This document shows, one piece after another, positions 39,913 to 63,535 of a stretch of DNA of 64,000 nucleotides. Source of the stretch: Gemmatimonadota bacterium (GTDB taxonomy: Bacteria; Latescibacterota; UBA2968; UBA8231); the NCBI GenBank assembly GCA_038128265.1, contig JAYPJE010000003.1, forward strand, positions 61,278 to 125,277. The letters are read 5' to 3'. The position numbers were made by a program, and so were the translations under genes. The notes under the pieces were generated by a model. It was not told the DNA's origin. It searched no databases and was given only the letters and a program-made list of their open reading frames with translations. How positions within the stretch are numbered: position 1 is the first letter of the stretch; each line of letters opens with the position of its first letter.

Positions 39913-39977
39913 ACTCTTCTTATGCCCGCACTCATGGCCGCGGGCACTCATTGAATACCGTTGCACGACAAGACTAC

Positions 39978-40907
39978 ATGGCAAACGCACTCCAGGGCCG
40001 TCGCCGCCTGCCCCCCTGGCTGAAGGCCAAGGCACCAGGCACACCCAACTATATAGACATTAAGAACTTGGTAGCGGAGAAGCGCCTGCACACCGTATGT
40101 GAAAGCGCTCACTGTCCCAACATCGGCGAGTGCTGGGGCCAGCGCACGGCCACCTTTATGATTCTCGGCGACGTTTGCACGCGCAGCTGCGGCTTTTGCG
40201 CCATTAAAACGGGCCGACCGGAATGGCTCGACGAGGGCGAACCCGAACGCGTCGCCGAAGCCGTGGCGCACCTCGACCTGCGCCACGCCGTCATCACCTC
40301 CGTCAATCGCGATGAATTGCCCGACGGCGGTGCACGCGTTTTTGCCCGCACGCTCGAAGCGCTGCATAGCCGCTGTCCGCAGACTACGGTAGAAGTTCTG
40401 ATACCCGATTTTCAGGGGAATTGGGACGCGTTAGAAACCGTTCTGAGCGCCGGTCCGGACATCCTTAACCACAATATAGAAACGGTGCCTCGGCTCTACT
40501 TTAAGATGCGGCCACAGGCCAAATACGCGCGCTCGCTGGAACTACTCAGCCGGGCGCGCACGGCTGGACCGGCCCCGACCAAATCGGGCATGATGCTGGG
40601 AGCCGGGGAGCGCGAAGACGAAATAGCCCAAACCATCGACGATTTGGCCGCCGTCGGCTGCGCCATTTTGACGCTCGGTCAGTATCTGAGCCCGTCCGCA
40701 CAGCACGTGCCCGTCGAGCGCTACGTCGAGCCCGACGAATTTGACCACTGGTACCATTACGCCATGCAGCGCGCATTCCGCCACGTGGAATCCGGGCCGC
40801 TCGTGCGCTCGTCTTACCACGCCGAAGCACAGGTAGATGAAGCGACGCGGCGCACCGAGACACGCGATCTGCTATCTGTAGCCCCCTTACCCATCGAGAA
40901 AGAGTAA
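39978..40907 (+). CDS. lipA: Lipoyl synthase
   Basis: LHTVCESAHCPNIGECW, CTRSCGFC, TSVNRDEL, NHNIETV and GPLVRSSYHA motifs. Alternative start at 39951. Confidence 0.97.
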   Translation: MANALQGRRRLPPWLKAKAPGTPNYIDIKNLVAEKRLHTVCESAHCPNIGECWGQRTATFMILGDVCTRSCGFCAIKTGRPEWLDEGEPERVAEAVAHLDLRHAVITSVNRDELPDGGARVFARTLEALHSRCPQTTVEVLIPDFQGNWDALETVLSAGPDILNHNIETVPRLYFKMRPQAKYARSLELLSRARTAGPAPTKSGMMLGAGEREDEIAQTIDDLAAVGCAILTLGQYLSPSAQHVPVERYVEPDEFDHWYHYAMQRAFRHVESGPLVRSSYHAEAQVDEATRRTETRDLLSVAPLPIEKE

Positions 40908-40915
40908 AGGCGCGA

Positions 40916-41920
40916 ATGAATCTGGAAAAGAAATCCCTGTCCGGCTACCTGCAACGCAAAAAGCTCATTACGCGCGGCACGCCTATCCGCGTGCAGACGT
41001 TGGGCGACGGCATGAAGAATCGCGTCTATTACGTCGCCGCTCCAAAGGAAGCCTGGATCGTCAAGCAGGCCCATTCACGCGTGCAGATAAAGGAGCGCTG
41101 GTGGCTCGACCGCAAGCGCATTTTTGCCGAGGATAGCTGCATTGATATTCTTCGCCAGTTTATGCCGCCGGAAATCATTCCGCAAACCGTCTTAGTCGAT
41201 CGCACGGACTTCGTGTTGGTGACCACTCCGCCGCCCGACAACGCCGTGCTGTGGGAAGACGACCTGGCCAGCGGTCGGATTGATCTGCAGATTGCCGTCC
41301 AGTGCGGCGAACTGCTGGCCACGGTGCACAACGAAACGGCTGAACACCCCGAGCTCAAGGCGATGTTCAAAGACACCAAGGCCTTCGAACAGCTGCGCAT
41401 AGAGCCTCACTACGAATACGTCACCAACACCTTTCCCGACCTTAAGAAGGTGATTGATGCGCAGACCAAGCGCCTCAAAAAGGAAACGTACTGCCTCATA
41501 CTGGGCGATCTGCGACCGCGCAACGTGTGGGTCAACTCCGGCCAGCTCTACCTAGTCGACTTCGCCACCGCACACTTTGGCCACCCCGGCTTCGACCTGG
41601 CGTTCTACGCGGCCGATATGTGCGTCAAAGCCATGCAGAACAGCCTGCAGAAAGCCGCTTACTTAGAAGCAATCAACGTGTTCTGGAACGGCTATTTCAA
41701 ATTGGCTTCTTACAAGGGCGTGAAGGAAATCGAAAAGCCCGCCGTACGCGACCTGGGCTGCATGCTGCTGGCAGCGACTGACGGCCGCCAGGCGGTCGAA
41801 TTCGACGATCCCCACGTCGCCGGCCTTGCGCGCCGCATTGCCATGAGCCTGCTGTTCACCGAGTTGGCCACGATCGAGGACATCACCGAGTTTATCAACC
41901 GAACGCTAATCGACGGGTAG
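40916..41920 (+). CDS. APH/choline-kinase-fold phosphotransferase, methylthioribose-kinase-like (divergent)
   Basis: LGDGMKNRVY, WIVKQA, FEQLRIEP, LGDLRPRN and VDFATAHFGHPGFDL motifs. Confidence 0.75.
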   Translation: MNLEKKSLSGYLQRKKLITRGTPIRVQTLGDGMKNRVYYVAAPKEAWIVKQAHSRVQIKERWWLDRKRIFAEDSCIDILRQFMPPEIIPQTVLVDRTDFVLVTTPPPDNAVLWEDDLASGRIDLQIAVQCGELLATVHNETAEHPELKAMFKDTKAFEQLRIEPHYEYVTNTFPDLKKVIDAQTKRLKKETYCLILGDLRPRNVWVNSGQLYLVDFATAHFGHPGFDLAFYAADMCVKAMQNSLQKAAYLEAINVFWNGYFKLASYKGVKEIEKPAVRDLGCMLLAATDGRQAVEFDDPHVAGLARRIAMSLLFTELATIEDITEFINRTLIDG

Positions 41921-42018: not shown

Positions 42019-42774
42019 CTATGCGCCGGCAGCGGTAAACTGCGCGCGCAGATCCTCACTGCTCGACAGCACGTGCTCTACCATTGCGGTACGCGCCGCC
42101 TGCGCATCGCCGGCGCGCAGTGCACGAACGATATCCTCATGCTGCTGCAGCGACAGCCGCGCGCGATCGAGCGCGCGGTCCTCCTCCGCCAGCGAACGCT
42201 CAATCCACGCCTGCAAATAGCCGCGCGTCGCTTCGAGCAAGCTGGCCAGCAGCGCATTTTGCGTGGCCCCTGCTACCGCCAGATGAAAGCGCACGTCCGC
42301 GGCCAAAAACTGCGCTCCATCCTCCAGGGCTTCGGCCATATCCGACAGAGCCTCCTCTATCCGGCGCATATCCTCTTCTGCGGCCCGCTGTGCCGCCCAA
42401 AATGCCGTCTCCGACTCCAACATCAGGCGCGTCTCAATCAGATCGCCGACCATCTTGCGGTTAAGCAGCATACCCCACTGCAGCGCCTTTTGCACGAACT
42501 GCTGGTTGTCGCTGACAAAAGTCCCCTCGCCGACGCGGCCATCGATCACGCCCATGGCGCTCAGCGAGCGCAGCGCCTCGCGCAGCGACGAACGCCCCAC
42601 GCCAAATCGCTTACACAATTCGCGTTCAGGCGGCAGGCGATCGCCCGGGCGCAGCACGTCGCGCTTGATCAGATCGACGATCTGCGCCATAATCTCTTCG
42701 CCCAGCGACGTGCGCGCTATCGGGCGGACATTAGCGGCCACTGAATTGGAAGAATCGGCGTTATTCAAATTCAC
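42019..42774 (-). CDS. GntR/FadR-subfamily transcriptional regulator (wHTH + FCD)
   Basis: LRPGDRLPPERELCKRFGVGRSSLREAL...GEGTFV; FCD motifs ADVRFH, ATQN and QHEDIV. Start may be GTG 42741. Confidence 0.94.
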   Translation of the reverse strand: MNLNNADSSNSVAANVRPIARTSLGEEIMAQIVDLIKRDVLRPGDRLPPERELCKRFGVGRSSLREALRSLSAMGVIDGRVGEGTFVSDNQQFVQKALQWGMLLNRKMVGDLIETRLMLESETAFWAAQRAAEEDMRRIEEALSDMAEALEDGAQFLAADVRFHLAVAGATQNALLASLLEATRGYLQAWIERSLAEEDRALDRARLSLQQHEDIVRALRAGDAQAARTAMVEHVLSSSEDLRAQFTAAGA

Positions 42775-42850
42775 TGTACATTTCGCAAATTATTAATAAT
42801 AAAATACTTGTGTGAAGTTTTTTCCGAGCAAGTATTCGTTCCATTTGCAA

Positions 42851-42862
42851 TTGGTCTGACCA
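42851..42862. promoter_or_regulatory. Putative FadR-type operator
   Basis: T-TGGTC-T-GACCA palindrome matching the TGGT-N3-ACCA consensus of FadR-subfamily sites, between the regulator and the corrinoid operon. Confidence 0.7.
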
Positions 42863-42918
42863 TCAGCTATTTTGATCAAGTATAGCGCAATACGTCCTCT
42901 ATCGTCAAGGGAAATGCC

Positions 42919-43557
42919 ATGGCTCTAACCCGCGATATCGGCACTCGCATCGAGCTGGTGCCCATGGATTTGCACTGCAGCAATATAACCGTTGCCCTCT
43001 ACCGCCAGGATGGGGCCGAAGCACCGGCTTACCGCGTCCATACCTACAGCCAGCACCCCGATGCTCCCCAGCGCATCGAAGCGCTGCGCCAGGCGATGCA
43101 GATACTGGGCACCATGGAAGAGGCCAGCGAAGAGCTGCTGCGCTTCCCCTGTGGGCACGCCCATCAATTTGCCGTGCGCCGGCTCTTTTTGGATGCCTGC
43201 AAGCGCGATCCGTCGCTGACGCTACAGGCGCAGCCCCTGCGCATATTCGACAAGAAGGGCGACGGCCACATTGCCGTAGATAGCCTAGGCGACGGCCAGT
43301 ACCGCGTGCGCGCAGAAGAAGATAGCGACGGCGTCGAGCGTCGCACGGCCACCATTGCACGCGGACTGATTCGCCTCGGCGAAATGGAAGAGACCGGCGA
43401 CGACGCCAATTGCCTACACTTTGCCTGCGGCCATGCGCACGATGCCCTCATTGCCCAACTGCTGGTGCGCGCACCCAACGTGCGCGCGGCCATGCGCGAA
43501 GCCGAAGAGATGGCCCAGCGCGGTCAGCTCGTCGCCCCCAGCGCCCAGAATAATTAG
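42919..43557 (+). CDS. Uncharacterised protein with two internal repeats ending in F-x-CGHAH
   Basis: AAGGGA RBS; first gene of the operon; repeat pattern YRV...R...LGxMEE...LxFxCGHAH seen twice. Confidence 0.8.
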   Translation: MALTRDIGTRIELVPMDLHCSNITVALYRQDGAEAPAYRVHTYSQHPDAPQRIEALRQAMQILGTMEEASEELLRFPCGHAHQFAVRRLFLDACKRDPSLTLQAQPLRIFDKKGDGHIAVDSLGDGQYRVRAEEDSDGVERRTATIARGLIRLGEMEETGDDANCLHFACGHAHDALIAQLLVRAPNVRAAMREAEEMAQRGQLVAPSAQNN

Positions 43558-43565
43558 GAGATAGC

Positions 43566-44603
43566 ATGGCACACGTTCCCTCTATGACCAGCAAAGAGCG
43601 CGTACTCGCCGCTCTCAATCGCCAGCCCGTCGACCGCACGCCGCTGTGCAATCCGACTTCGGTAGCTACCGTCGAGCTAATGGACCTCGTCGATGCCCCT
43701 TTCCCCGAAGCCAATCGCCAACCCGAGCTCATGGCGCGCCTAGCTGCCACCGGCTACACCGAACTCGGCTTTGACACCATCATGCCCGTGTTCTCCATCA
43801 TTCAGGAATCTTCCGCGCTGGGCTGTAAGATCCAGTGGGAGCAAAAGGACAACTGGCCGACGGTGCGGATGAACGAACCGATTTGGCAAACGCCCGATGA
43901 TATTAACGTCCCAACCGATTTGTGCACCCATCCCGATACCCGATGCGTCACCGACGCCATTGCCATATTGCGCAAAGAATACGGGGATGAGGTGGCCGTC
44001 ATCGGCAAGACCATGGGGCCCTGGTCACTGGGCTACCACTGCTTTGGCGTCGAACCCTTTTTGCTGATGTCGCTCGACGATCCGGGCAAGACCAAGCTCT
44101 GCTTGGATCGCATGAAGGAGATAACGGTCGAATACGGTCTGGCGCAGATCGAGGCCGGCGCCGATGCGCTGACGCTGCCCGACCATGCCACCGGCGATCT
44201 GGTCAGCGGCGAATACTACGAGCGCTATTTACGCGACCTACACATTGAGATGGCCGAGCGCCTCCCTGTGCCAATTATTCTCCACATCTGCGGCCGCACC
44301 GTCGATCGCATGGAGTACATCGCCCAAACCGGCATGGCGGCTTTCCACTTCGACTCGAAGAATACGCCGATGGAATCGATGGACATCGTCTCAGATCGCA
44401 TTGCCTTGGTCGGCAATATCAACAATCCCGAAACGCTCTTTTCCAAAGGGCCCGACGTCGTGCGCGAAGAAGTATACCGCAACCTGGAAGCGGGCGTGCA
44501 ACTCGTCGGGCCGGAGTGCGCCATACCGCTGCAGACTTCGATTGAAAACCTAAAGGAAATACCCCGCGCCGTGCGCGATTGGCACGCCGGCATCGACCGC
44601 TAG
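43566..44603 (+). CDS. MtaA/CmuA-family methyltransferase (URO-D fold)
   Basis: MTSKERVLAAL...VDRTP, ESSALGC, GPWSL, AQIEAGAD, putative Zn ligands LHICG...PEC, and LVGNIN; AGGAG RBS. Confidence 0.9.
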   Translation: MAHVPSMTSKERVLAALNRQPVDRTPLCNPTSVATVELMDLVDAPFPEANRQPELMARLAATGYTELGFDTIMPVFSIIQESSALGCKIQWEQKDNWPTVRMNEPIWQTPDDINVPTDLCTHPDTRCVTDAIAILRKEYGDEVAVIGKTMGPWSLGYHCFGVEPFLLMSLDDPGKTKLCLDRMKEITVEYGLAQIEAGADALTLPDHATGDLVSGEYYERYLRDLHIEMAERLPVPIILHICGRTVDRMEYIAQTGMAAFHFDSKNTPMESMDIVSDRIALVGNINNPETLFSKGPDVVREEVYRNLEAGVQLVGPECAIPLQTSIENLKEIPRAVRDWHAGIDR

Positions 44604-44613
44604 GAGAGAAAGC

Positions 44614-45357
44614 ATGGCAGAAATCGGCGATATTGCCAACGAGTTTATACGCGAAGAAATCGATGAATTCCTCGAGCGCGACGACGAGCGCACGCGCAAT
44701 ATAGAGCACTTTGCGCGCGCAAAGCCGCTGATGCAGGACATTGCCGCCGCCCTCATCGACGGCGCGCACGAAGAGGTCGACGAACTGACGCAGCAGGCGC
44801 TGGGCGAGGGCATTGAAGCGCTCGAGGTCATGGACGATGGCCTCATTGCCGGCATGGGCATCGTCGGCATTAAATTCCGCGAAAACTTTATCTTTGTTCC
44901 CGAGGTGCTGGCTTGCGCGCGCGCCATGAAGGCCGGCATGGCCCATATCGAACCCATTCTCTCCGATTCGGGTATCGAACCCATTGGCACGGTCGTCATG
45001 GGCACGGTTAAGGGCGATCTGCACGATATTGGAAAAAATCTCTGCATCATGATGCTGCGCGGCGCCGGCTTTGTCGTGCACGACCTCGGCGTCGACACCT
45101 CGGAAGACGAGTTTATCTCCGCTATAGAAGAGCACGGCGCCACGCTACTGGGCATGTCCGCACTGCTGACGACTACGATGCCCAATATGGGCAAGACGAT
45201 TGAAGCCTTTATCGACGAAGACCTGCGCGACGATATCAAAATCATGGTCGGCGGCGCGCCTGTCACACCGGAATTTGCCGAAGATATGGGCGCTGACGGC
45301 TACGGCAAAGACGCCCTGGCCTGCGTCGAGTTGGCCAAGCAGCTGCTAAGCGAATAA
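44614..45357 (+). CDS. Stand-alone corrinoid-binding protein (cap + B12-binding domain)
   Basis: GLIAGM..VG..F....IFVPEVL..ARAM cap; GTVKGDLHDIGKN (DxHxxG), GMSALLTTTM, MVGGAP and GADGY. Confidence 0.95.
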   Translation: MAEIGDIANEFIREEIDEFLERDDERTRNIEHFARAKPLMQDIAAALIDGAHEEVDELTQQALGEGIEALEVMDDGLIAGMGIVGIKFRENFIFVPEVLACARAMKAGMAHIEPILSDSGIEPIGTVVMGTVKGDLHDIGKNLCIMMLRGAGFVVHDLGVDTSEDEFISAIEEHGATLLGMSALLTTTMPNMGKTIEAFIDEDLRDDIKIMVGGAPVTPEFAEDMGADGYGKDALACVELAKQLLSE

Positions 45358-45381
45358 CTCGCGACGGACAACGGCCACGCT

Positions 45382-47274
45382 ATGGCTCCCATAGACCCCA
45401 GCGAATACCAAAAGCGCCTCGACAAACTGTCTTCTCTGCTGGGCGGTATCGTCCGCCACGCCGATGTGCAGTCTCAGAGTCGCTGTCCCTACAAGAACCG
45501 CCACGGCGAGTGCACCGCCCAGTTTGGCTGCCGCAACCAGCGCAAAAACGAGCAGGCAGGTGGGCCGCTGCTGTGCGTGGGCGACGATCAATTGGACTAC
45601 CGCAGCGCGTGGGAAGGCATCGAACGCCCGGCTCAGCGCCCGGCCCAAGACGGCAGGGGTCGCATAACCAGCGGTGCGCATTCCTGTGTCGCGCAGAGCC
45701 GCCGCACGCTTTTTGATGCGGCCGATCAGCTCGACGTAGCCGTGCCCACATCGTGCTATCGCACGGGCAGCTGCCACGAGTGCATCGTCGAAGTCAAACG
45801 CGGTATGGAGGCGCTCAACGCGCGCACGCGCGAAGAGCACTTTCTGCGCGAAGACTACCGCCTGGCCTGCCAGGCCGAAGTCGTTGATGCAGACATCGAC
45901 ATCGAGTTCGCCCCGCTCAACCGCACTCCGCGCATACTAACCCTGTCTACGACTCAGCCCGATGAAGTCGCTCCCCTGGTGGAGCGACGGCAGGACAAAG
46001 TCTATTTCGACGGGGAGCATATCGACGACTATCGCGGCCGCATATTGGGCATCGCCATCGATTTGGGAACGACCACCGTAGCCATGGAGCTACTCGACTT
46101 GGAAACGGGAGAGAGCGTGCAGGTGGCCTCGTTTGAAAACCCGCAGCGTTTTGGCGGCAGCGATGTGATGAACCGCATATCCTACGACGCACAGCACCCG
46201 CGCGAGCTACGGCAGGCCATCGTCAAGGCACTCAACCGCCAAATTGCTCGCTGGTGCGCGCTCTACTCTATCCACCGACACTGCATTTACGAAGTCGTCG
46301 TCGCCGGCAATTCAACCATGCGCGACATCCTCTTTCGCTACGACGTCCAAGGCATAGGCCAGAGGCCCTACAAGTCGCAGGTCGAATTGGAGTTCATCGA
46401 TGGCCAACGCTCTCACACCGCCCTGAGCGAAAAGACGCGCCGCCTCGGCCTGCGCGCCCATCCCAAAGCGCGCGTCTACGGTTTACCGCTCATCGCAAGT
46501 CATGTTGGAGCGGATGCAGCCGCCGACCTGTGTGCCACCCGACTCGACGCTGAAGCGGATGCCGCCCTGTTAATCGACGTCGGCACCAATACCGAAGTCG
46601 TGGCCATCTACAACGGGCGCATGGTCGCCGCCTCTTCTCCGGCTGGACCGGCATTCGAGGGCGGCACCGTCACCTACGGAATGCCCGGCTACGAAGGCGC
46701 CATCGAACGCCTGCGCTGGAACGGGACGGCTTGGGACTACAAGACCATTGGCGATATCGCCCCCCAAGGCATCTGCGGCTCGGGCCTAGTCGATCTCCTC
46801 GCAGAGCTCCGACGCCACGATCTCATGTCACCCAAGGGCGCCTTTGCCCAGCGGCAAAAGGAGATCACCGTAGTGGCCGACGCCGGCATCACGTTTTCGC
46901 GCCTCGACGCCTCCAACCTAGCGCAGGCCAAAGCCGCCAATTACTGCGGCCAATACATCGTGCTGCGCGCGCTTGGCCTCGCTCCAGCTCAGGTAAAAAA
47001 ACTCTACCTGGCCGGCGGATTCGCCCACTACATCGATGCTCAGGCGGCCATAGATATCGGCTTTTTGGCACCGGTTCCCGTAGAGCGGATAGAAAAAGTC
47101 GGCAACGCCTCGCTGCAGGGCGCGCGCGATGTGCTGCTCTCAAAAAACAAGCGCCGCCGCTTAGAAGAGTTGGTCCGTCGCATCGAACACATCGAGCTCG
47201 AAACGACGCCCGATTTTTTTGAGCTCTTCGTCGACGGCTGCCAGTTCAAACCCATGCCCTCCGAGCTGAACTGA
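45382..47274 (+). CDS. Reductive activator of corrinoid proteins (RACo/DUF4445, ASKHA ATPase with 2Fe-2S domain)
   Basis: CYRTGSCHEC...RLACQ 2Fe-2S motif; IDLGTTT, NPQRFGGSDVMNRI, VGADA, IDVGTNTE, AGPAFEG, GICGSG, LAGGF and GNASLQGA. Confidence 0.92.
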   Translation: MAPIDPSEYQKRLDKLSSLLGGIVRHADVQSQSRCPYKNRHGECTAQFGCRNQRKNEQAGGPLLCVGDDQLDYRSAWEGIERPAQRPAQDGRGRITSGAHSCVAQSRRTLFDAADQLDVAVPTSCYRTGSCHECIVEVKRGMEALNARTREEHFLREDYRLACQAEVVDADIDIEFAPLNRTPRILTLSTTQPDEVAPLVERRQDKVYFDGEHIDDYRGRILGIAIDLGTTTVAMELLDLETGESVQVASFENPQRFGGSDVMNRISYDAQHPRELRQAIVKALNRQIARWCALYSIHRHCIYEVVVAGNSTMRDILFRYDVQGIGQRPYKSQVELEFIDGQRSHTALSEKTRRLGLRAHPKARVYGLPLIASHVGADAAADLCATRLDAEADAALLIDVGTNTEVVAIYNGRMVAASSPAGPAFEGGTVTYGMPGYEGAIERLRWNGTAWDYKTIGDIAPQGICGSGLVDLLAELRRHDLMSPKGAFAQRQKEITVVADAGITFSRLDASNLAQAKAANYCGQYIVLRALGLAPAQVKKLYLAGGFAHYIDAQAAIDIGFLAPVPVERIEKVGNASLQGARDVLLSKNKRRRLEELVRRIEHIELETTPDFFELFVDGCQFKPMPSELN

Positions 47275-47282
47275 GCACGTCT

Positions 47283-48890
47283 ATGAGCAAATCACACCCC
47301 CCTCGGCGCTACTCGGGCGCCTGGCAGAAAGAGAGCCTGCGCAACCTGCTGCGAGACGACGCAGAATTCGTGCACGTCGTCGAGCTGGTCACCTCGCGCG
47401 GCGTAATGGCAGACAAAGACGGAAGGCGCATCCTATCGCTGGCGCGCCGCCTCTGCGAACACCCGGACGTGCACGCCCTGAGCATCACCGACAACCCCGG
47501 CGGCAACGCCATGATCAGCGCCGACACACTCGGCACCGACCTGCTCTCGCGCGGCCAAGAAGTCATCATCCATATCTCCTGCAAGGATTGGAATCGCAAC
47601 GCCCTGCAGGGGCGAGCATGGCAGCTGGCCAGCGAGGGCTTTGATAACGTGCTGTGCCTTTCCGGAGACTACCCGACCAGCGGCTACCGAGGAGTCGCCA
47701 GCGGCGTATTTGACATCGACTCCATTGGCCTGCTGCAGATGTTTAGCGAACTCAACGCCGGCCTGTCCATTGCCGGCCGCAGCAAGCCGCGACGCTTGAA
47801 AAAAACCCACTTTTTACTGGGTGCGGCGACCAACAACCACAAGCGCTACGAACGCGAGGTCATGCCGCAGTATTTCAAGCTGGCACAAAAGGTGCAAAAC
47901 GGCGCCGACTTTATCATCAGTCAGATTGGTTACGACACCCGCAAGCAGGACGAACTCCTCCGCTATATGCGACTGCGGCACATCGACGTGCCGGTCATAG
48001 CCAATGTCTTCGTGCTCAGCGCTGGGGTGGCGCGCTACTTTCACGGCGGCCACATCCCCGGCGTAGAGGTTACCGATCGCCTGCTGGAACTGTGCGAGCA
48101 ACAGGCCCAGTCTCCCGACAAGGGCAAGGCGTTCTTTCTGGAATTAGCCGCTCAACAGTGCGCCATTGCGCGCGGGTTGGGCTATCGGGGCGTCTATCTG
48201 GGCGGCCATCTACAATACGGCGACTACGAAAAAATCATCGCCCTATCGCAGCGCTACGCACCCGACGATTGGCGCGACTTTGCGCGCCAGATCGACTTTT
48301 CCCATCCCGATGAGTTCTACTTTTTTGACCGCGATCCGTCGAGTGGCCTGAGCAGCGATGCAATTAATCCCGCCTACCTGGCGTCCAAGGATCACACGGC
48401 ACGCAGGCGATTGCAGCGCGAAGTATCCAGCGCCTATAAGCTCAGCCGCATTGTACACGAACACCTCTTTGCTCCGCACAGCCGCGGCTTTCAGGCCGGA
48501 AAAAAATTGGCCGCAGCACTAGAGCACAGCCCCAATGCCCAACGCTTTCTGCACGTCGTAGAGCAGGCGACCAAAGTTCCTCTTTTCGACTGCCGCGACT
48601 GCGGCGACTGCTCGCTGCCCGACATCGCCTATTTATGTCCCGAATCACAGTGCGTAAAAAACCAGCGTAACGGGCCGTGCGGCGGAACGCGGCAAGGACT
48701 GTGTGAAGTAGGCGATAAGGAATGCATCTGGGCGCGCGCCTACGAACGTTTGAAAGCGTATGGGCAGGAGGAACACATGCTCGAACGCCCTGCCGTCATT
48801 AAAGACGGTGCGCTGCACGGAACCAGTGCCTGGCTCAACACCTTTGCAGGTCGCGATCACCACGGACGCGACGGGGAGAACGCACCGTGA
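47283..48890 (+). CDS. metF: Methylene-THF reductase MetF domain fused to a C-terminal Cys-rich MetV-like domain
   Basis: ITDNPGG, IHISCKDWN, LCLSGD and KVQNGADFIISQIGYD; C-terminal CRDCGDC...CP...C.K..RNGPCGG....CEV....CIW. Confidence 0.85.
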   Translation: MSKSHPPRRYSGAWQKESLRNLLRDDAEFVHVVELVTSRGVMADKDGRRILSLARRLCEHPDVHALSITDNPGGNAMISADTLGTDLLSRGQEVIIHISCKDWNRNALQGRAWQLASEGFDNVLCLSGDYPTSGYRGVASGVFDIDSIGLLQMFSELNAGLSIAGRSKPRRLKKTHFLLGAATNNHKRYEREVMPQYFKLAQKVQNGADFIISQIGYDTRKQDELLRYMRLRHIDVPVIANVFVLSAGVARYFHGGHIPGVEVTDRLLELCEQQAQSPDKGKAFFLELAAQQCAIARGLGYRGVYLGGHLQYGDYEKIIALSQRYAPDDWRDFARQIDFSHPDEFYFFDRDPSSGLSSDAINPAYLASKDHTARRRLQREVSSAYKLSRIVHEHLFAPHSRGFQAGKKLAAALEHSPNAQRFLHVVEQATKVPLFDCRDCGDCSLPDIAYLCPESQCVKNQRNGPCGGTRQGLCEVGDKECIWARAYERLKAYGQEEHMLERPAVIKDGALHGTSAWLNTFAGRDHHGRDGENAP

Positions 48891-49915
48891 ATATACCCGC
48901 TATCGACAAACCCTTTATCGTCATTGGCGAAAACGTCCACACCACCCGCGTCCTTTCGCGCAAGGGCAAGCTCATTGCCTCCGATGCCGAGGGGCGAGAG
49001 GGCATTCGCTATCGCGACACGAACAACGCACGGCGCTTTTTACCCATCCCAGAAGACGTAAAGGGGACGCGCGACTACGAAGAGGGCCGTATCAAGCACC
49101 TCAAAATAGCCGTGCGCGAAGCGATGGCGGGCAGCGCAGATGCACTCGACTACATCGCTCGGCAGGTGCAGCGCCAAGAGCAGGCCGGCGCCGACTTTCT
49201 CGACCTCAATGTCGACGAGCTATCCATTCGCGTCGAGGAACAGCAAGAGGCCATGCGCTGGCTGGTCGGCGCCGTGCATTCCATGAGCACGCTCCCCCTC
49301 TCAATAGACTCGTCCAATAGCGAAATACTGCGCGCCGGCTTGGAGTGCTGTGCAGATCACGCGGAGCGGCCGCTGCTCAACTCGGCATCACTCGAGCGTT
49401 TAGACGGCCTCGATATGGCGCGCGCATTCAATGCGCAGGTCGTCATCACAGCCTCAGGTGAATCCGGCATGCCCGATGACGTCGAAGAGCGTATGACGCA
49501 TGCCATGCGCATGGTCGAAGAGGCCGACCGACGCTCCATACCGCTATCCGACCTATTTATCGACCCACTGATCTTTCCCATCTCTGTCGATGGCCGCTAT
49601 GGCCAGCACGCTTTTGGCGCCATAGCCCAGCTGCGCGCGCGACTGGGCAACGACGTGCACATAACTGGCGGCTTTTCCAACGTGTCCTTCGGCCTGCCAT
49701 GCCGACAGCTCATCAACGACGTCTTCCTGATACTCGCCGTCGAAGCCGGTGCCGACAGCGCCATTATCGATCCGACGAGCAGCTCCCTGAGCGAGGTCTT
49801 TTCCATCGACCGCAGTGCGTCAACTTTCCAGCTGGCCGAAGACGTGCTGCTGGGCAGAGACGAGTACTGCGCCCGTTTTATCCGCGCCTATCGCAAGGGG
49901 GAACTGACGGCCTAA
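48887..49915 (+). CDS. Methyl-THF:corrinoid methyltransferase (pterin-binding, AcsE/MetH-folate-domain-like)
   Basis: IVIGEN, GADFLDLNVD, PLSIDSSN, LLNSAS, FIDPL, GGFSNVSFGLP.R.LIN and AGADSAIIDP; GTGA overlap with metF. Confidence 0.9.
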   Translation: MNIPAIDKPFIVIGENVHTTRVLSRKGKLIASDAEGREGIRYRDTNNARRFLPIPEDVKGTRDYEEGRIKHLKIAVREAMAGSADALDYIARQVQRQEQAGADFLDLNVDELSIRVEEQQEAMRWLVGAVHSMSTLPLSIDSSNSEILRAGLECCADHAERPLLNSASLERLDGLDMARAFNAQVVITASGESGMPDDVEERMTHAMRMVEEADRRSIPLSDLFIDPLIFPISVDGRYGQHAFGAIAQLRARLGNDVHITGGFSNVSFGLPCRQLINDVFLILAVEAGADSAIIDPTSSSLSEVFSIDRSASTFQLAEDVLLGRDEYCARFIRAYRKGELTA

Positions 49916-49989
49916 GCGCCGCATACGGCAGCCCCTGCAGACTCCCGCCGCGCTGGCTTTTTCCATCCCTTTGCATAGATTATTTCTCT

Positions 49990-50988
49990 ATGATACCATT
50001 TATTGAGCGCATCGCCGAAGAGCATCCCCTGCTGTACGATGGGGGGTTTGGCTCCCAGCTATTTGCCCGCGGCATCGAGTTGACCAACAGCACACTGGCC
50101 AACGAAGCACATCCCGACGCCGTCGTAGAAATCCATCGCACCTATATCGAAGCCGGCGCCGATGCCATTGGCACCAATACGTTTGTCGCCTCGGAACTGC
50201 ATTTAGAAATGGCCGGCAAAGATCCGGCTTCGGCCGGTCAACTAGCCACGCGTGCAGCTCAGCTGGCGCGCCGCGCCGTCGAGGAGAGCGGCCGCGAAGT
50301 CTATGTCGGCGGATCCATTGGCCCCTCCCCCGGCGCCATCGAATCAGATGCCGGCGACACCACCTTTGGCATTGCCGACGCCAACGTCCGCGACGCCCAC
50401 GCGCGCATCGTCGACGCGCTGGTCGAAGGGGGCGTCGACTTTTTTGCCATCGAAACTCAATTTTCTGCCAAAGAGGCAGCCATAGCCTGCAATATTGCCC
50501 GTAAGGCGGGGCTGCCAATCGCCATCAACCTGACGCTCAAGTACACCAAAGATCGAAAAACAGGCGTCGTCACCTACAAGACCGACTGGGGTCACTCACC
50601 GGCAGATCTGCTTGACATCCTCGCCTCCGGAGAATTTTCTGACGGAGATAATCTGCTCGACCACGTACACCTACTCGGCCTCAACTGCGGGGCCGAAACG
50701 CGCCGCAGCGAGCACACCGGTATGGCCTATGCCATCTGCGGCAGCGAGCAGATAGGGCAGGCACTGCAGGCGCGCGGTCTGTCCAAGCGCATTATGACCT
50801 ATCCCAACGCCGGCATGCCGCAGCTCGATAGCGAACACCGAACTACCTATTCGCAGACGCCGCAGGACATGGCCGCGGATATCTCCGACCTAATCGACAG
50901 CGGCGCCTATTTCATCGGTGGCTGCTGCGGCACAACGCCCGATCACATCCGCGCCTTTCGCCGGGCCATCGACGGGCATGCAGCGTAG
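49990..50988 (+). CDS. Stand-alone homocysteine S-methyltransferase domain
   Basis: LYDGGFGS, IHRTYIEAGAD.I.TNTF, GSIGP, GLNCG, YPNAG and IGGCCGTTPDHI (three Zn cysteines intact). Start moved to ATG 49990. Confidence 0.9.
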   Translation: MIPFIERIAEEHPLLYDGGFGSQLFARGIELTNSTLANEAHPDAVVEIHRTYIEAGADAIGTNTFVASELHLEMAGKDPASAGQLATRAAQLARRAVEESGREVYVGGSIGPSPGAIESDAGDTTFGIADANVRDAHARIVDALVEGGVDFFAIETQFSAKEAAIACNIARKAGLPIAINLTLKYTKDRKTGVVTYKTDWGHSPADLLDILASGEFSDGDNLLDHVHLLGLNCGAETRRSEHTGMAYAICGSEQIGQALQARGLSKRIMTYPNAGMPQLDSEHRTTYSQTPQDMAADISDLIDSGAYFIGGCCGTTPDHIRAFRRAIDGHAA

Positions 50989-50991
50989 GCC

Positions 50992-51276
50992 ATGATCCAC
51001 TATCAGGTGCTCTACTGGCGCGATATACCGGCGCAAATAAAAGTCTACGCCGGGCGCCGTCCCACTTCACACGCCCTAGCATCGCGCTTTCAGGTAGCCA
51101 TCGACCGCATCGCCATGCACGAAGGACTGACCGGCACCGAGGCCTATCTCGACCAGTGGCAATGGTCAGACAAACGCCCGTATGAAGGCGATGCAGAAGG
51201 GGCAGCGGCCGTCTTAATTAGCCAGTTAGAGCGCGAGGGCGATGCGCAGCTAGCCGCACGCAAAGAATCGCCGTGA
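50992..51276 (+). CDS. Small Virulence_fact (Cvf-like) domain protein
   Basis: YWRDIPAQI...L..RFQ.AIDR.AM..G..GT.AYL.QW signature. Confidence 0.82.
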   Translation: MIHYQVLYWRDIPAQIKVYAGRRPTSHALASRFQVAIDRIAMHEGLTGTEAYLDQWQWSDKRPYEGDAEGAAAVLISQLEREGDAQLAARKESP

Positions 51277-53185: not shown

Positions 53186-55504
53186 CTAAAAGTGTAGCCG
53201 AACGCTCGTGCCAATCTGGCGCGGATCTCCGTAGCTCACATAGAGTTTGTCACTATAAGCCGGCGGCTCCAAGCCAAAGTAAAAACCGCGCACGGCATAG
53301 CGCTCGTCCAGTGCGTTGCTGCACCACAGCGTCACGGCCCATCCAGCGCGTTCGTAGCCCATGCTCGCATTGACGAGCTGGTAGGCGTCAGCGCGCTCGT
53401 CGTGGCTATCCGAAAAGTAAAATCCGTCGACAAACGACCACGCGGCGCGTGCAAAGGCACCCACAGGATGCTCGTATTCGCCCCCGACGCGCGCATTCCA
53501 CTGCGGGGCGTGTGCGGCGGCGCGCCCACCCAACTGCTGGCGCTGACCGCCTGCAACATCGAACGCATAGGGATCCACGCGCGTGTTCAGGTAGGACAGC
53601 GAAGCAAATGCGTTTAAATTGGGCAGCAGTCGGTACTGACCCTCTGCTTCAATGCCGCTGTTGCGTCCCGAAGCGGCGTTCGCCGTGAAGTAGAAAAAGC
53701 TGTTGGGATCGCCCGGCGTCTGCTGGCTTGATAGGCTGACCTGCTGCCCATCGCGCAGGGCATGGAAGGCAATAAGCTCAATGCGGTAGCGGCTGGTCGA
53801 GAGGCGATAGCCCGCTTCTACGTTGAGCATGTATTCGGGAGCATAGGGTCGGTTCTCCGCGGCCAAATACGGGTGCTGATTAATCCCCCCCGCGCGATAG
53901 CCACGCGCAGCGGCCACGTAGGCGTTTTCTCCCCTACGCCCCTGCCAGCTGAGCGCAACTTTGCCGCCGGGCAGCCACTGTCCCACGTCGTAGCGCACAT
54001 CCTCTCCCCCGCTGTTGGTCTGGCCGCTGTAATCTATTGTGCTGCGTTCGAAACGCGCGTTAAGCGTAAGCTCCCAAACCGCACTGAGCGGACGTTTCCA
54101 CTGACCATAGAGTGCGAAGTTGCCCATGTTATAGCGCGCCTGCAGATCGCTCGCCGCGCCGCCGAATAGGTAACCCGTAGCGTCGTCCTCTTCGCGCAGC
54201 GCGCGCGCATACAGGCCGACCAATGCACGCTCCCCTCTGAGCCGCACTTCTTGGCTCAGGCTCGTGCGCTGGCGCAGGGTGCGGTCAAAAAAGTCGTAAT
54301 GCCAGCCCTCTACTTGCGGATCAAAACCGTACGGATCGCCCGCCCAATAGGCGTCGTGTCCCCAATCCCCATCGTAGCTGTAGTCCAAGTCGGTCTGCGC
54401 ATAGGTGCTGATCGATAGCAGGTCAACGCCTGTGCGCAGCGCTTTCTCAGCGCGCAGCGCTAGCGCGCTGGTCACCTGATGGTCGTCGCCCGGTCGGTCG
54501 GAATAGGTCGTCAACCGGCGGTTGTTGTCTGGCGACCACATATCGTAGCCGTTGTCCCCGTCGGCGCGAAACAGCGTCGCTTTGAGCAACAACCCGCTTG
54601 ACGCAGCATAGCGCGCCTTGAGGCGCAGCAACCCCTCGCGGCGGCGGTTGCTATCGTCGACGCCCAGATAGGCATTGTCGCGAAACCCGTTTGACGCCGC
54701 CCGTTGGTAGCCAGCGCGCAGCGCAAAACGATCGGTGATGGGCGCATTGATCACGCCTTCCGCGCGCAGGAGTCCATCGCCTCCCACGGAAAAACTCACC
54801 GCGCGCCTCGCTTCTGAAGAAGGCTCAGCTGATTCGATGTTAATCAATCCCGCCAGGGCGTTGGCGCCAAACACGCTCGACTGCGGCCCTTTAAATACCT
54901 CTACCTGCTGTAGATCAAAGAGCGCCCCGGTGCCCAGTCCGCTCATGTCGATACCGTCGACGACAAAGCCGACGGAGAAGTTGGGGGCGCCCTCTCCCGC
55001 ATACTGGCTGCGCTCGCCGATGCCGCGCACCTGGAAGTAGCGCGGCCGTGCCGTTCCACCAGCCCAGTGTACATTGGGCACGGCCTGCACGGCGTCTTGC
55101 AGATGTTGCCCTCCATCCCTCCGTACCTGCTCGCCGCGCACCACGCTGATACCAGCCGCTACCTCGCTCTGCGATTCGGCGCGCAATCCGCCGATGACTA
55201 TAACCTCTTGGGCTTGTAGCACGGCGGCCACCAACCCAATGCGCAGCGACTCGTCGTCCCGGCGCAACACCCGAATAGCCCCCTCGTAGCCATAGCGTGT
55301 AAAGCGCAGCGTATCGCCGACCGCGGCCTGGACGACAAAGCCGCCGGCAGCATCGCTGCTGGACATCCACTGGCCCGCACTTATCTGCACCTCTTCCAGC
55401 GGTATCCCCGTCTCGGCATCGACCACCCGACCGCGCACCTCTTCCGCCTCGCAAAGACCGACGGAAGCGACCCACAGAACAAAAAAAATACTGCGCAACC
55501 CCAT
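53186..55504 (-). CDS. TonB-dependent receptor, TPP-riboswitch-regulated (probable thiamine or precursor uptake)
   Basis: Signal peptide, CarboxypepD-like N-domain, plug (RPRYFQVRGIGERSQY, VEVFKGPQS), barrel and C-terminal F; GGGAGG RBS before ATG 55504. Confidence 0.9.
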   Translation of the reverse strand: MGLRSIFFVLWVASVGLCEAEEVRGRVVDAETGIPLEEVQISAGQWMSSSDAAGGFVVQAAVGDTLRFTRYGYEGAIRVLRRDDESLRIGLVAAVLQAQEVIVIGGLRAESQSEVAAGISVVRGEQVRRDGGQHLQDAVQAVPNVHWAGGTARPRYFQVRGIGERSQYAGEGAPNFSVGFVVDGIDMSGLGTGALFDLQQVEVFKGPQSSVFGANALAGLINIESAEPSSEARRAVSFSVGGDGLLRAEGVINAPITDRFALRAGYQRAASNGFRDNAYLGVDDSNRRREGLLRLKARYAASSGLLLKATLFRADGDNGYDMWSPDNNRRLTTYSDRPGDDHQVTSALALRAEKALRTGVDLLSISTYAQTDLDYSYDGDWGHDAYWAGDPYGFDPQVEGWHYDFFDRTLRQRTSLSQEVRLRGERALVGLYARALREEDDATGYLFGGAASDLQARYNMGNFALYGQWKRPLSAVWELTLNARFERSTIDYSGQTNSGGEDVRYDVGQWLPGGKVALSWQGRRGENAYVAAARGYRAGGINQHPYLAAENRPYAPEYMLNVEAGYRLSTSRYRIELIAFHALRDGQQVSLSSQQTPGDPNSFFYFTANAASGRNSGIEAEGQYRLLPNLNAFASLSYLNTRVDPYAFDVAGGQRQQLGGRAAAHAPQWNARVGGEYEHPVGAFARAAWSFVDGFYFSDSHDERADAYQLVNASMGYERAGWAVTLWCSNALDERYAVRGFYFGLEPPAYSDKLYVSYGDPRQIGTSVRLHF

Positions 55505-55528
55505 ATATACTCCTCCCACTCTGCACAT

Positions 55529-55564
55529 AAAAAAACCGCCGCCCAGCACGAGGTGGGAAGCGGT
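55529..55564 (-). terminator. Attenuator terminator (expression platform of the TPP riboswitch)
   Basis: Minus strand accgcttccca...tgggcggcggt followed by a T run, between the aptamer and the RBS. Confidence 0.7.
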
Positions 55565-55584
55565 AGCAGCATGCAGCCAGCGCG

Positions 55585-55665
55585 CTCCGTTTCCCTACGC
55601 TGGCACGATCCAGTTCAGGTTCTAAGGGTTTTATCTCAGGCTCGCACGAGCCACCCCCAACGGAT
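55585..55665 (-). ncRNA. TPP riboswitch aptamer
   Basis: Minus strand tccgtt-GGGGGTG-gctcgtgcgagc-CTGAGA-taaa-ACCCttaGAACCTGAactGGATcgTGCCAGCGTAGGGA-aacgga; conserved CUGAGA and ACCUGA...GCGUAGGGA elements and P1 pairing are present. Confidence 0.93.
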
Positions 55666-55769
55666 ACTGTTCGGAAAATATACGCATGCGCGGGTTGGGA
55701 GACAATGCGCTATATTAGCCCCGTCGTCATCCCACGTACTCCATAACGCAGAGCCCAAGGGAGGTCTCC

Positions 55770-60214: not shown

Positions 60215-60324
60215 ATACCCCTCCTTTGCGAGACTTGCAACAATGCCATCGTGCGCTATACATTAAGCACTCCTGTTCACCGGCAACAGCCGCCTACGAA
60301 CTCAGCCAGGAGAAGCCCGACCCG

Positions 60325-61053
60325 ATGATGACCGAATCTGAGCTTTACGAATTTGATCTAAATGGACTGATCGTCTACCGCGACTTAATTCCCCCGGCAG
60401 ACGTGGCGCGCATGAACGAGCTGATCGACGACGACCAGGCCGGAGAATTTCCCCACAGTTTTCAGTTTCTCAACCTCGATCCCATCTTTATGAATTTGAT
60501 GGCTCATCCCAAGACGCTGGACGTCATGCGCACGATTATCGGCGATTGGATGCGACTAGACCACACCTACGGACTGCAGATGACGCGCGACTCGGAAGTC
60601 CGCGAGAACCTGCACGGCGGCCTGCGCGCCGACCAGGGCGAGCACCAGTACCAGTGGGCCTACAATAAAATGTGGAATGGGTTGATCGTCGTCATGTACG
60701 CACTCGAAGACGTCGAGCCAGGCGATGGCGGCTTTGTCGGCGTGCTGGGCAGCCACAAAGCCAGCATTAACACCTACAAACCACCGCTCGATTCTCACCT
60801 AGTCTTCAACCCTTCGCTTAAAGCCGGCGATATGCTCATCTTTACCGAGGCGCTGGTGCACGGCACGATTCGCTGGAAGAGCGCCAAGCCCCGCCGCTCT
60901 CTGCTCTACAAATACTCGCCGGGCTATTCTACGTGGGGCAAAGCCGAAGCGCTCGACAGCTATCTCGAACTGGCGCAAAACGACCTACAGCGCGACCTGC
61001 TGCGCCATCCCTACGTCGGCTCGCGCACCCCGCTTGAATTTCCCGAAGTATAG
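60325..61053 (+). CDS. PhyH-like Fe(II)/2-oxoglutarate-type oxygenase
   Basis: YEFDLNG, LHGG, DGGF..V.GSHK, KAGDMLIFTEALVHGT and RRSLLYKYSP motifs; CAGGAG RBS. Confidence 0.85.
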   Translation: MMTESELYEFDLNGLIVYRDLIPPADVARMNELIDDDQAGEFPHSFQFLNLDPIFMNLMAHPKTLDVMRTIIGDWMRLDHTYGLQMTRDSEVRENLHGGLRADQGEHQYQWAYNKMWNGLIVVMYALEDVEPGDGGFVGVLGSHKASINTYKPPLDSHLVFNPSLKAGDMLIFTEALVHGTIRWKSAKPRRSLLYKYSPGYSTWGKAEALDSYLELAQNDLQRDLLRHPYVGSRTPLEFPEV

Positions 61054-62820: not shown

Positions 62821-62956
62821 CTTGCCTCCCATTGGCTTTTGGTATGAATCATACCTACTCTTGTATCATTAGAGTATAACGCGAATGTGCGCTTAGGAAA
62901 TACGCGTCCACTGCGCTGTATCGATTCGACGGAAACCGAGCTTGAGCATACCGCCT

Positions 62957-63535
62957 ATGCGATCTCCCATCGACGCCGACATATTGCACATAACAGACTT
63001 TTTGCGGGCGAGTGAACGCACCGACACCTTTAACCAACTGCGCGACGATATCCCCTGGGAACAGCACGTCGTGCGGCTGTTCGGGCGTTCGCATCCAGCC
63101 CCGCGCCTCTCTTCGTGGCACGGCGATACCGGCGCTACCTACGCCTATTCTGGCCTTCGCCTCGAACCGCGCGGTTGGACGTCCTTGCTCGAAGACCTGC
63201 GCCAGCGCATTAGCCAACGGGTCGATGCCCCGCTTAACTGCGCGCTGCTCAACTACTACCGCGACGGGGGCGATAGCATGGGCTGGCACAGCGATGACGA
63301 ACCCGAACTCGGCCGCAATCCCTGCATTGCCTCGCTCAGTCTCGGCGCAGCACGGCGCTTTCTCATGCGCCATAAAACGCGGCGGGACGTGCCGACCTGC
63401 GAATATCTGCTCGGCGACGGCGACCTATTTATCATGCGCGGCCCCACGCAGCACAACTGGAAGCACCAAATCCCCAAGACGCGGCGACCTGTCGGCGAGC
63501 GCATCAATATCACATTTCGCTATATACCAACATAG
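62957..63535 (+). CDS. AlkB-like (ALKBH2/3-type) 2OG-Fe(II) dioxygenase
   Basis: PRL..WHGD, Y.YSG, LLNYYRDGGDSMGWHSDDE, IASLSLGA.R.F, WKH.IPK and RINITFR motifs. Start at 62942 or 62957. Confidence 0.92.
   Translation: MRSPIDADILHITDFLRASERTDTFNQLRDDIPWEQHVVRLFGRSHPAPRLSSWHGDTGATYAYSGLRLEPRGWTSLLEDLRQRISQRVDAPLNCALLNYYRDGGDSMGWHSDDEPELGRNPCIASLSLGAARRFLMRHKTRRDVPTCEYLLGDGDLFIMRGPTQHNWKHQIPKTRRPVGERINITFRYIPT

Follow-up and report, generated by a model that had tools for sequence, protein, structure and literature searches.

A corrinoid methyl-transfer operon with a predicted zinc methyltransferase on its probable input side in Latescibacterota and other phyla

Gene content and control of the operon

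A 64,000-nt stretch of contig JAYPJE010000003.1 (GenBank assembly GCA_038128265.1, a bacterium placed in Latescibacterota), referred to here as the window, contains a corrinoid methyl-transfer operon and a divergent FadR-type regulator gene, which together span positions 42019 to 51276 (Table 1). An earlier sequence-only reading of this DNA had listed eight co-oriented genes beside the regulator, and all nine open reading frames (ORFs) were confirmed in place. Successive genes of the co-oriented block are separated by 8, 10, 24, 8, −4, 74, and 3 bp, and 144 bp lie between the first of them and the divergent GntR/FCD gene. Gene content, conservation, co-distribution, and operator sequence are established here. 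Comparison with known systems points to a real, widespread, and uncharacterized variant of the aerobic corrinoid methyl hub, which would carry a new input module.

Table 1. Features of the operon and its regulatory region, in window coordinates
Feature	Position	Strand	Basis or remark
FadR-subfamily GntR repressor (helix-turn-helix + FCD)	42019..42774	-	Pfam/NCBIfam profiles
Palindromic operator TGGTCTGACCA	42852..42862	.	Between divergent genes, 67 bp before first operon gene
212-aa protein, no known family, two internal repeats	42919..43557	+	Constant partner of the MtaA-like clade
MtaA/CmuA-subfamily UroD-fold zinc methyltransferase, proposed methyltransferase 1 (MT1)	43566..44603	+	Profile, motif, tree, model (predicted)
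Corrinoid protein, cap + B12-binding domains	44614..45357	+	Profiles
N-terminal 4-Cys domain of RACo ORF, ~80 aa	45382..45621 (end approximate)	+	No Pfam family
RACo/RamA-like ATP-dependent corrinoid reductive activator with 2Fe-2S domain	45382..47274	+	Fer2 + RACo middle + RACo C
MetF-MetV fusion (methylene-tetrahydrofolate reductase + Cys-rich MetV domain)	47283..48890	+	MTHFR + DUF5981
AcsE/MtgD-like methyl-tetrahydrofolate:corrinoid methyltransferase	48887..49915	+	Pterin_bind; PRK07535 below cut-off
Stand-alone homocysteine methyltransferase domain, MetH type	49990..50988	+	S-methyl_trans, motifs
PF13769 "virulence factor" family protein	50992..51276	+	Pfam profile

The regulator scores best against the NanR, LldR, PdhR, and GlcC profiles, all below cut-off, and is the only tblastn match at E < 1e-4 in the host genome, an assembly that is 84% complete, which limits every host-genome search reported below. 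In an alignment of 46 sequences, residues D160, H164, H212, and H234 of its FCD domain are conserved in ≥90%; such Asp and His residues bind a metal and small carboxylates in this subfamily, and their retention gives a mild hint that the effector may be acidic. The shared promoter holds the palindrome TGGTCTGACCA (TGGTCnGACCA), which occurs once in the window (0.04 expected) and has one exact site in an A/T-flanked context in the host genome. It matches the FadR-subfamily consensus, a TnGTnnnACnA-type palindrome, and resembles PdhR and LldR boxes. Of 45 loci that have the regulator, 24 carry an exact copy in the 300 bp before the first gene, against 0 of 58 loci that lack it; allowing one mismatch raises these counts, which include many kin loci, to 34 of 45 and 5 of 58. 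Five Versatilivorator-type loci carry the variant palindrome TTGTCnGACAA.

Of 20 chosen genomes, 19 have a site immediately before the operon. Secondary sites in the 20 genomes are at chance level (15, versus 12 for a control pattern), with 12 of the 15 inside called ORFs; the search therefore names no transporter or catabolic gene. The predicted regulon is apparently the operon alone. Control by the FadR-type gene, as proposed earlier, is supported by a predicted operator that co-occurs with the regulator. The accompanying suggestion of substrate induction stands as a prediction where the regulator is present but not as a general rule, as only 39 of the 80 related loci described below carry the regulator gene. 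The absence of S-adenosylmethionine (SAM) and cobalamin riboswitches was borne out by Rfam at the gathering threshold, which yields one tRNA and one thiamine pyrophosphate (TPP) riboswitch in the window and nothing else.

The corrinoid protein has its DxHxxG motif at residue 135 and is 72 to 91% identical in related loci. Residues ~1 to 80 of the RACo ORF hold four cysteines (C35, C44, C50, and C65) and match no Pfam family. This 4-Cys domain, overlooked by the sequence-only reading and separate from RACo proper, precedes RACo in 79 of 79 RACo loci; 19 have both in one open frame, and 60 do not. In the MetF-MetV fusion, the DUF5981 (MetV-like) part has eight cysteines at residues 437 to 481, and the AcsE-like protein has a Pterin_bind domain and scores 205 against PRK07535 (cut-off, 259). 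The homocysteine transferase carries the MetH-type motifs DGG, ETQ, LNC, YPNAG, and GGCC, and 24 of 29 sequences at ≥50% identity have the full set. Among solved structures, the transferase comes closest to the N-terminal part of Thermotoga maritima MetH (E value, 1.8e-27). The earlier proposal that one corrinoid carrier may serve three methyltransferases is supported.

A PF13769 gene is also present in the hub locus of Sinorhizobium meliloti. On a Terrarubrum plasmid (L182:11230-13512), the "virulence factor" is a PF13769-RACo fusion adjoining a corrinoid protein and DUF1638. Because of the gene in the Sinorhizobium hub and the RACo fusion in Terrarubrum, a function in corrinoid activation is suggested, and the PF13769 protein is more likely a corrinoid-activator accessory than a virulence gene.

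The MtaA-like enzyme and its putative partner protein

The product of the second operon gene scores 249.7 against the TIGR01463 MtaA/CmuA subfamily (curated cut-off, 235.4) and is also above the cut-off for PRK06252; it fails the MtaA and MtbA equivalog cut-offs (228.9 versus 400 and 203.9 versus 600, respectively). It aligns over its full length with Methanosarcina mazei MtaA (E value, 7.5e-50), and its predicted structure superposes on MtaA (PDB 4ay7) at a TM score of 0.92, with 29% identity in the structural alignment. Residues H240, C242, D263, and C318 are invariant in 64 of 64 clade sequences and align with the zinc ligands of M. mazei MtaA. Alignment and model agree on a predicted UroD-type barrel with a His-x-Cys...Cys zinc site. 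In a quick tree of 105 proteins, with Shimodaira-Hasegawa-like approximate likelihood ratio test (SH-aLRT) support only and a midpoint root, the clade (22 rows; SH-aLRT, 100) sits among uncharacterized proteins, bacterial where named. The tree used 78 of 150 representative proteins, with fragments and some proteins left out, and MtsA, MtpA, MecC, and MecE were not identified in it. Clade members carry PDHATGDL and HFD motifs where the archaeal group has DPAS/DMAS and S-x-D/E.

By profile search, the MtaA-like gene is the only URO-D family match in the host genome. ComA was not found there, a search that did not extend to other routes to coenzyme M (CoM). A plasmid collection holds no close homologue of the MtaA-like gene (best, 27%) and none of the 212-aa protein. 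A 686-aa protein, P0267, joins an AroB-like domain to an MtaA-like domain and may be an assembly chimera.

The 212-aa protein encoded by the first gene contains two internal repeats, each with an F-x-C-G-x-x-H motif, and both Cys/His pairs (C78/H82 and C170/H174) are conserved. It has at least 1765 homologous clusters, and Pfam gives no family for 64 members beyond single weak matches. The structure model is confident (pLDDT, 90.7); Foldseek returned nothing for it at E ≤ 0.001, its best VIA-align match, a urea carboxylase (Z, 7.0; root mean square deviation, 3.0; 89 aligned), lies within background, and the ESM Atlas gave no usable match.

The 212-aa profile finds a copy in 10 of 10 tested clade carriers, five of which have the gene apart from the MtaA-like gene, in 0 of 12 genomes that hold only 42 to 48% MtaA-like homologues, and in 1 of 7 genomes without an MtaA-like match, where the copy is at a contig end. 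Since the protein is present in all tested clade carriers and in none of the tested genomes with distant homologues only, it would be part of the function of the clade. Where the operon is broken (22 of 80 loci), the gene remains beside the MtaA-like gene rather than RACo. Its product is a putative partner of the MtaA-like enzyme. In two genomes of a single lineage (G032 and G033), the genes of the system lie apart from one another, and a gamma-glutamyltranspeptidase gene precedes the partner gene (L192:3664-6204).

Distribution and direction of methyl flow

A conservation scan of species genomes gave at least 557 confirmed stretches, of which the best 80 were kept for locus counts; two of these come from one contig, and several end at contig edges. 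The MtaA-like protein is 81 to 95% identical across these 80 loci, which are labeled Latescibacterota, Poribacteria, Acidobacteriota, Lentisphaeria, Gemmatimonadota, and Planctomycetota; among loci of close homologues that bear a name, Latescibacterota predominate. Conserved synteny, which the sequence-only reading had put forward as a check, is evident: the 212-aa gene is present in 79 of the 80 loci, and the cluster is not a chance arrangement. The remaining genes follow with the corrinoid protein in 58, RACo in 55, the AcsE-like gene in 40, the MetF-MetV fusion and FadR in 39 each, PF13769 (the Cvf-like gene) in 34, and the homocysteine transferase in 26. The genomes of all 22 loci that lack the corrinoid gene, a set that also included one control locus, hold a 78 to 84% identical copy elsewhere, and in some genomes the gene set is scattered yet complete.

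Within the host phylum, 141 of 168 genomes match the MtaA-like gene. The match occurs in 126 of 131 genomes of the host class, always once; removal of four that are only 42 to 45% homologues leaves a single-copy gene in 122 of 131. A sister subclade (66 to 71% identity) occurs in another phylum, in which 15 of 401 genomes have it; all 15 loci keep the partner, MtaA-like, AcsE-like, corrinoid, and RACo genes together with MetV and MetF, which are separate genes there and fused in the host operon; PF13769 is present in 13. Two sister-subclade genomes have a further UroD-family gene next to the operon (L128:15764-17300 and L130:2393-4000); it is distant (26%) and accompanied by a corrinoid gene of its own (59%). 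Unrelated homocysteine transferases (27 to 34% identity) lie within the operon in seven loci of two lineages. Genes inserted in the operons of relatives are mostly transposases, HNH, restriction-modification, PhyH, and assorted enzymes, none widely shared, and no transporter family recurs among the scanned neighbors.

Beyond the operon, the host genome encodes a 1229-aa full-length MetH with a SAM reactivation domain (contig C2), a YitJ-like fusion of homocysteine transferase and MetF (C10), two MetE-like proteins, and Fhs. The statement that no SAM-dependent reactivation domain is present is thus right for the operon and wrong for the genome. A split methionine synthase is a plausible role in relatives without MetH, and in the host itself MetH, the YitJ-like fusion, and the MetE-like proteins make that role redundant. 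The presence in the window of an AlkB-like gene (62942-63535) and a PhyH gene (60226-61053) had suggested that the host is not a strict anaerobe. That suggestion is supported by heme-copper oxidase, which 18 of 20 carrier genomes have, among them 4 of 6 in the same genus; COX1 was not found in the host's own assembly, which is 84% complete. Carriers are thus mostly oxygen-respiring.

To address the direction of methyl flow, 54 selected genomes, most of them near complete (53 carry the clade gene and one has a 48% homologue), were searched for the AcsE-like gene, the homocysteine transferase, and PF02965, the last as the mark of MetH. The AcsE-like gene alone is present in 29, MetH alone in 18, both in 6, and neither in 1. 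Of 30 genomes in which PF02965 was not found, 29 retain the folate transferase, and 18 of the 24 with MetH lack it; retention of the transferase where MetH is missing therefore fits a split methionine synthase formed with the corrinoid protein and homocysteine transferase, and the AcsE-like enzyme is predicted to be dispensable where MetH is present. Of the 19 genomes without an intact AcsE-like orthologue, 18 have MetH, and 18 keep the homocysteine transferase orthologue, the 19th having another homocysteine transferase inside the operon. Loss of the AcsE-like gene leaves the corrinoid, homocysteine transferase, and MtaA-like genes in place at high identity. Because the AcsE-like gene is gone and the corrinoid and homocysteine transferase genes are kept, the MtaA-like enzyme is the sole methyl source left in the set. 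It is most likely the methyl input to the corrinoid carrier, and the earlier placement of this enzyme on the substrate side gains support from its retention in genomes without the folate transferase. As a caveat, 17 of the 54 genomes lack the homocysteine transferase orthologue; all 16 checked have other PF02574 genes.

Two side observations concern these gene families. In genome G190 (C1:1332081-1332570), which has MetH, the AcsE-like gene is in fragments and looks decaying, or reflects sequencing error. Two genomes of the host class hold 26 (G084; C1:24-152 kb and elsewhere) and 32 (G065; C1:840-893 kb and 5258-5313 kb) PF02574 matches, mostly stand-alone ORFs of ~300 aa in clusters, an unexplained expansion.

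Methyl donor and relation to known systems

The Mtg hub of Ruegeria pomeroyi (MtgBCDE/MetF2/RamA), which works in this aerobe with MttB as its input (PMC12478193), and the split synthase of Phaeobacter inhibens (PMC5764234) have the same aerobic architecture. The Mtg hub shares with the host operon a single corrinoid protein for pterin-binding, homocysteine, and substrate-side transferases, a RamA/RACo activator, MetF, MetV, and a PF13769 gene. The same hub is found at S. meliloti locus L181 (identities: corrinoid protein, 47%; RACo, 32%; pterin transferase, 33%; Bmt, 31%; PF13769, 42%; MetF, 26%; MetV, 37%), but with MttB and DUF1638 where the host operon has the MtaA-like enzyme and the 212-aa protein. 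In place of the PF06253 protein MttB, the host operon has the UroD-fold zinc MtaA-like enzyme and the 212-aa partner; it also has the extra 4-Cys domain and the FadR operator, and its hosts are uncultured phyla. The earlier statement that no MttB-type MT1 is present holds for the operon, and no PF06253 match was found in the host genome, in a search that did not include MtaB. DUF1638 was likewise not found in the host genome, the only genome searched for it. Separate PF02574, PF00809, and PF02607/PF02310 proteins with a RamA-like activator, which define the Phaeobacter-type split synthase (PMC5764234), are all present; they do not replace MetH in the host, which has a full-length copy. On gene content, the hub follows the aerobic Mtg architecture already known, and only the input pair would be new.

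Other systems pair a UroD-fold methyltransferase with a corrinoid protein. CmuAB of Methylorubrum CM4, the mec cassette, and CdmBCA combine the two with a tetrahydrofolate (THF) transferase, some with an activator, and CmuA works in an aerobe, as the host operon would. The operon has separate methyltransferase and corrinoid genes where CmuA is a two-domain fusion, and an AcsE-type second transferase and GntR regulator where mec has the MtrH-type MecF, a two-component sensor, and several methyltransferases (bioRxiv 10.1101/2021.08.30.458270); it therefore lacks the content of a mec cassette, a comparison that did not extend to the MecE sequence. In the sources consulted, none of the Cmu, mec, and Cdm systems is described with a homocysteine transferase. 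MtaA and MtbA (PDB 4ay7) share the fold, the zinc-site residues, and the TIGR01463 and PRK06252 scores above cut-off, but the host protein is far below their equivalog cut-offs and differs in clade motifs, and ComA was not found. The methylsulfide methyltransferase systems of Methanosarcina, MtpA/MtpC and MtsA/MtsB, each pair an MT2-family enzyme that uses a methyl-thioether with its own corrinoid protein, and MtpA of M. acetivorans is a methylmercaptopropionate (MMPA)-specific MT1 that does not use CoM (bioRxiv 10.1101/548461). Those systems are archaeal and anaerobic and end in methyl-CoM, whereas the acceptors of the host operon would be homocysteine and THF. By its defining genes the operon is no member of Mtg, Cmu, or mec. 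The terms "MtaA," "pfam01208," "Poribacteria," and "Latescibacter" are absent from the main text of PMC12478193, and no description of the operon was found in literature that excluded most subscription papers and supplements.

We propose, at a probability of about 0.5, that the operon is a cobalamin methyl hub that salvages methyl groups in aerobes and receives them from a thioether. RACo proteins keep corrinoid proteins at Co(I) at the expense of ATP, and RACo would do so here, probably with help from the 4-Cys domain and the PF13769 protein. The MtaA-like zinc enzyme and its partner would bind a small methylated compound and pass the methyl group to Co(I); the donor is most likely a methyl-thioether made in the cell or freely diffusing, with MMPA or a similar methylthio-acid, dimethyl sulfide, and methanethiol as candidates. 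The homocysteine transferase would move the methyl group to methionine in a near-thermoneutral thioether exchange, the branch that survives loss of the folate transferase, and the AcsE-like enzyme and MetF-MetV would connect the carrier to folate. Where MetH is lacking, these two would act as a split methionine synthase that takes methyl groups from methyl-THF to methionine, and a surplus of donor may let them supply methyl oxidation. Control of the operon would rest, at roughly half of the loci, with a FadR-type repressor that binds TGGTCnGACCA. We infer the direction of flux, the donor class, and the role of the partner from these comparisons. A thioether is favored because the enzyme is close to thiol-activating MT2 enzymes, because MtpA offers a precedent, and because the route to methionine would be thermoneutral; a donor that is intracellular or diffusible is suggested by the single copy, by gene sets that in some genomes are scattered yet complete, and by the lack of any recurring transporter.

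Several observations weigh against this proposal. Neither neighbors nor regulon members nor structures point to a particular donor, and the operon often has sugar-acid genes at its flanks. The clade is separate in the quick tree from the group with MtbA, archaeal MtaA-like, and methylthiol-labeled proteins, which includes a cluster labeled methylthiol:CoM methyltransferase (33% identity). CmuA shares the motif as H-T-C...C, so His-x-Cys...Cys is not sulfur-specific and does not by itself fix the chemistry. All 15 sister-subclade loci lack the homocysteine transferase (the eight genomes checked have PF02574 genes elsewhere), and the host has MetH of its own. Only about four lineages account for the AcsE losses, so that the genomes do not count as independent; genome G023 lacks both the AcsE-like gene and MetH, and two MetH genes in the comparison look interrupted. 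Thioether exchange is reversible, so methionine-to-thiol flux may occur. Methylation of Co(I) by MMPA is uphill by ~+20 kJ/mol (bioRxiv 10.1101/548461), and the folate branch from a thioether-derived methyl group would be further uphill. Methanethiol oxidase (PF05694), above cut-off in 4 of 32 carrier genomes, is uninformative on either side.

Flux could instead run in reverse, with the hub methylating a thiol from methyl-THF or methionine, for detoxification or to make a thioether such as methanethiol or dimethyl sulfide, and with the MtaA-like protein as an ordinary MT2. MetF-MetV, the AcsE-like enzyme, and the MtaA-like enzyme would then all work in their usual downhill direction, as family knowledge and thermodynamics have it, and MetV-MetF-MtaA-AcsE-corrinoid-RACo is exactly the set in 15 of 15 sister-subclade loci. 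We consider this doubtful: the 18 genomes with MetH and no intact AcsE-like gene would need methyl groups pulled from methionine through a reversed homocysteine transferase, and SAM-dependent thiol methyltransferases are simpler and need no oxygen-sensitive cofactor. If the operon were a split methionine synthase only, the MtaA-like and 212-aa proteins would be maintenance factors (cofactor loading or dealkylation) replacing DUF1638, which is needed beside RamA in Phaeobacter (PMC5764234) and not found in the host genome. Retention of the AcsE-like gene in 29 of 30 genomes without MetH agrees with such a role, which is nonetheless very improbable, as genomes with MetH that have lost the AcsE-like gene still hold the corrinoid, homocysteine transferase, and MtaA-like genes, leaving nothing to maintain, and the 212-aa gene stays with the MtaA-like gene, not RACo, when operons break.

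The donor might also be an O-methyl compound, a dead-end methoxy acid or aldehyde from O-methyl sugar or inositol breakdown, from which the hub would recover the methyl group and free a 2-hydroxy acid sensed by the regulator. The host genome has ~18 2-hydroxyacid dehydrogenase and ~10 HpcH aldolase matches, such sugar-acid genes flank the operon in several lineages (weak support), the regulator resembles LldR/PdhR/GlcC, several 43 to 45% sister homologues adjoin carbohydrate-related genes, and the UroD superfamily includes O-demethylases (PMC13222342). The flanking dehydrogenases fall, however, into several unrelated groups (21 to 53% identity between groups), and their high copy number makes chance adjacency likely, so that dehydrogenases and aldolases were set aside as a clue to the donor; the enzyme is also far closer to MtaA than to UroD-like proteins, in a comparison that held no characterized O-demethylase. 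We regard an O-methyl donor as unlikely. A methyl-halide system of the Cmu or Mec kind is the least probable of these alternatives, and chloromethane the weakest of the donors listed earlier. TIGR01463 includes CmuA and MecE, CmuA keeps H-T-C...C, and a gaseous, diffusible substrate requires no transporter; but CmuA of strain CM4 is only 23% identical (E value, 0.002) and fused to its corrinoid domain, which is 32% identical to the operon's corrinoid protein, the mec cassette has an MtrH-type second transferase and a two-component sensor (bioRxiv 10.1101/2021.08.30.458270), CdmB binds no zinc (PMC13222342), and near-universal single-copy presence across a whole class is unlike a halide niche.

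The proposed substrate-side pair is uncharacterized, yet near-universal and single copy in a whole class and >80% identical across several phyla, in sponge, ocean, and soil bacteria, many of them uncultured. The aerobic corrinoid hub described for glycine betaine would be extended to a methanogen-type zinc enzyme, with two protein families absent from Pfam brought in and a hint to the true role of PF13769. Identifying the donor would add a route to methyl-group and sulfur cycling, and to the marine sulfur cycle if it is a methyl-sulfur compound. More speculatively, and with considerable doubt, the pair may be an O2-independent, corrinoid-dependent MMPA or dimethyl sulfide demethylase in aerobes. 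An aerobic second demethylation of dimethylsulfoniopropionate (DMSP) and a non-oxygenase dimethyl sulfide route were reported long ago from physiology. If the pair acts in this way, it would supply a gene for the second DMSP demethylation, to 3-mercaptopropionate, and for that dimethyl sulfide route, and Poribacteria, Latescibacterota, and several Acidobacteriota groups would be an unrecognized methylated-sulfur sink feeding methionine directly.

A promoter and terminator scan gave counts close to shuffled levels. Near the regulator gene, lipA is followed by an APH-family kinase gene (39951-41920, plus strand). The kinase (40916-41920) was rejected as a methylthioribose clue: its MtnK-like match is weak (54 bits; cut-off, 275), and all 11 tested members of the host family have it, four of them without the clade gene, as do only 2 of 38 other genomes, so that it marks the family and not the operon. 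The host genome has one MtnA-like gene, on C5. At G000:C9:83340-86766, tandem near-duplicate HpcH aldolase genes lie beside a 2-hydroxyacid dehydrogenase gene whose orthologues flank the operon in three other loci; judged by N-terminal sequence, this cluster looks like a generic sugar-acid locus. On the minus strand at 53186-55668, the TPP riboswitch (55575-55668) precedes a TonB-dependent receptor gene.

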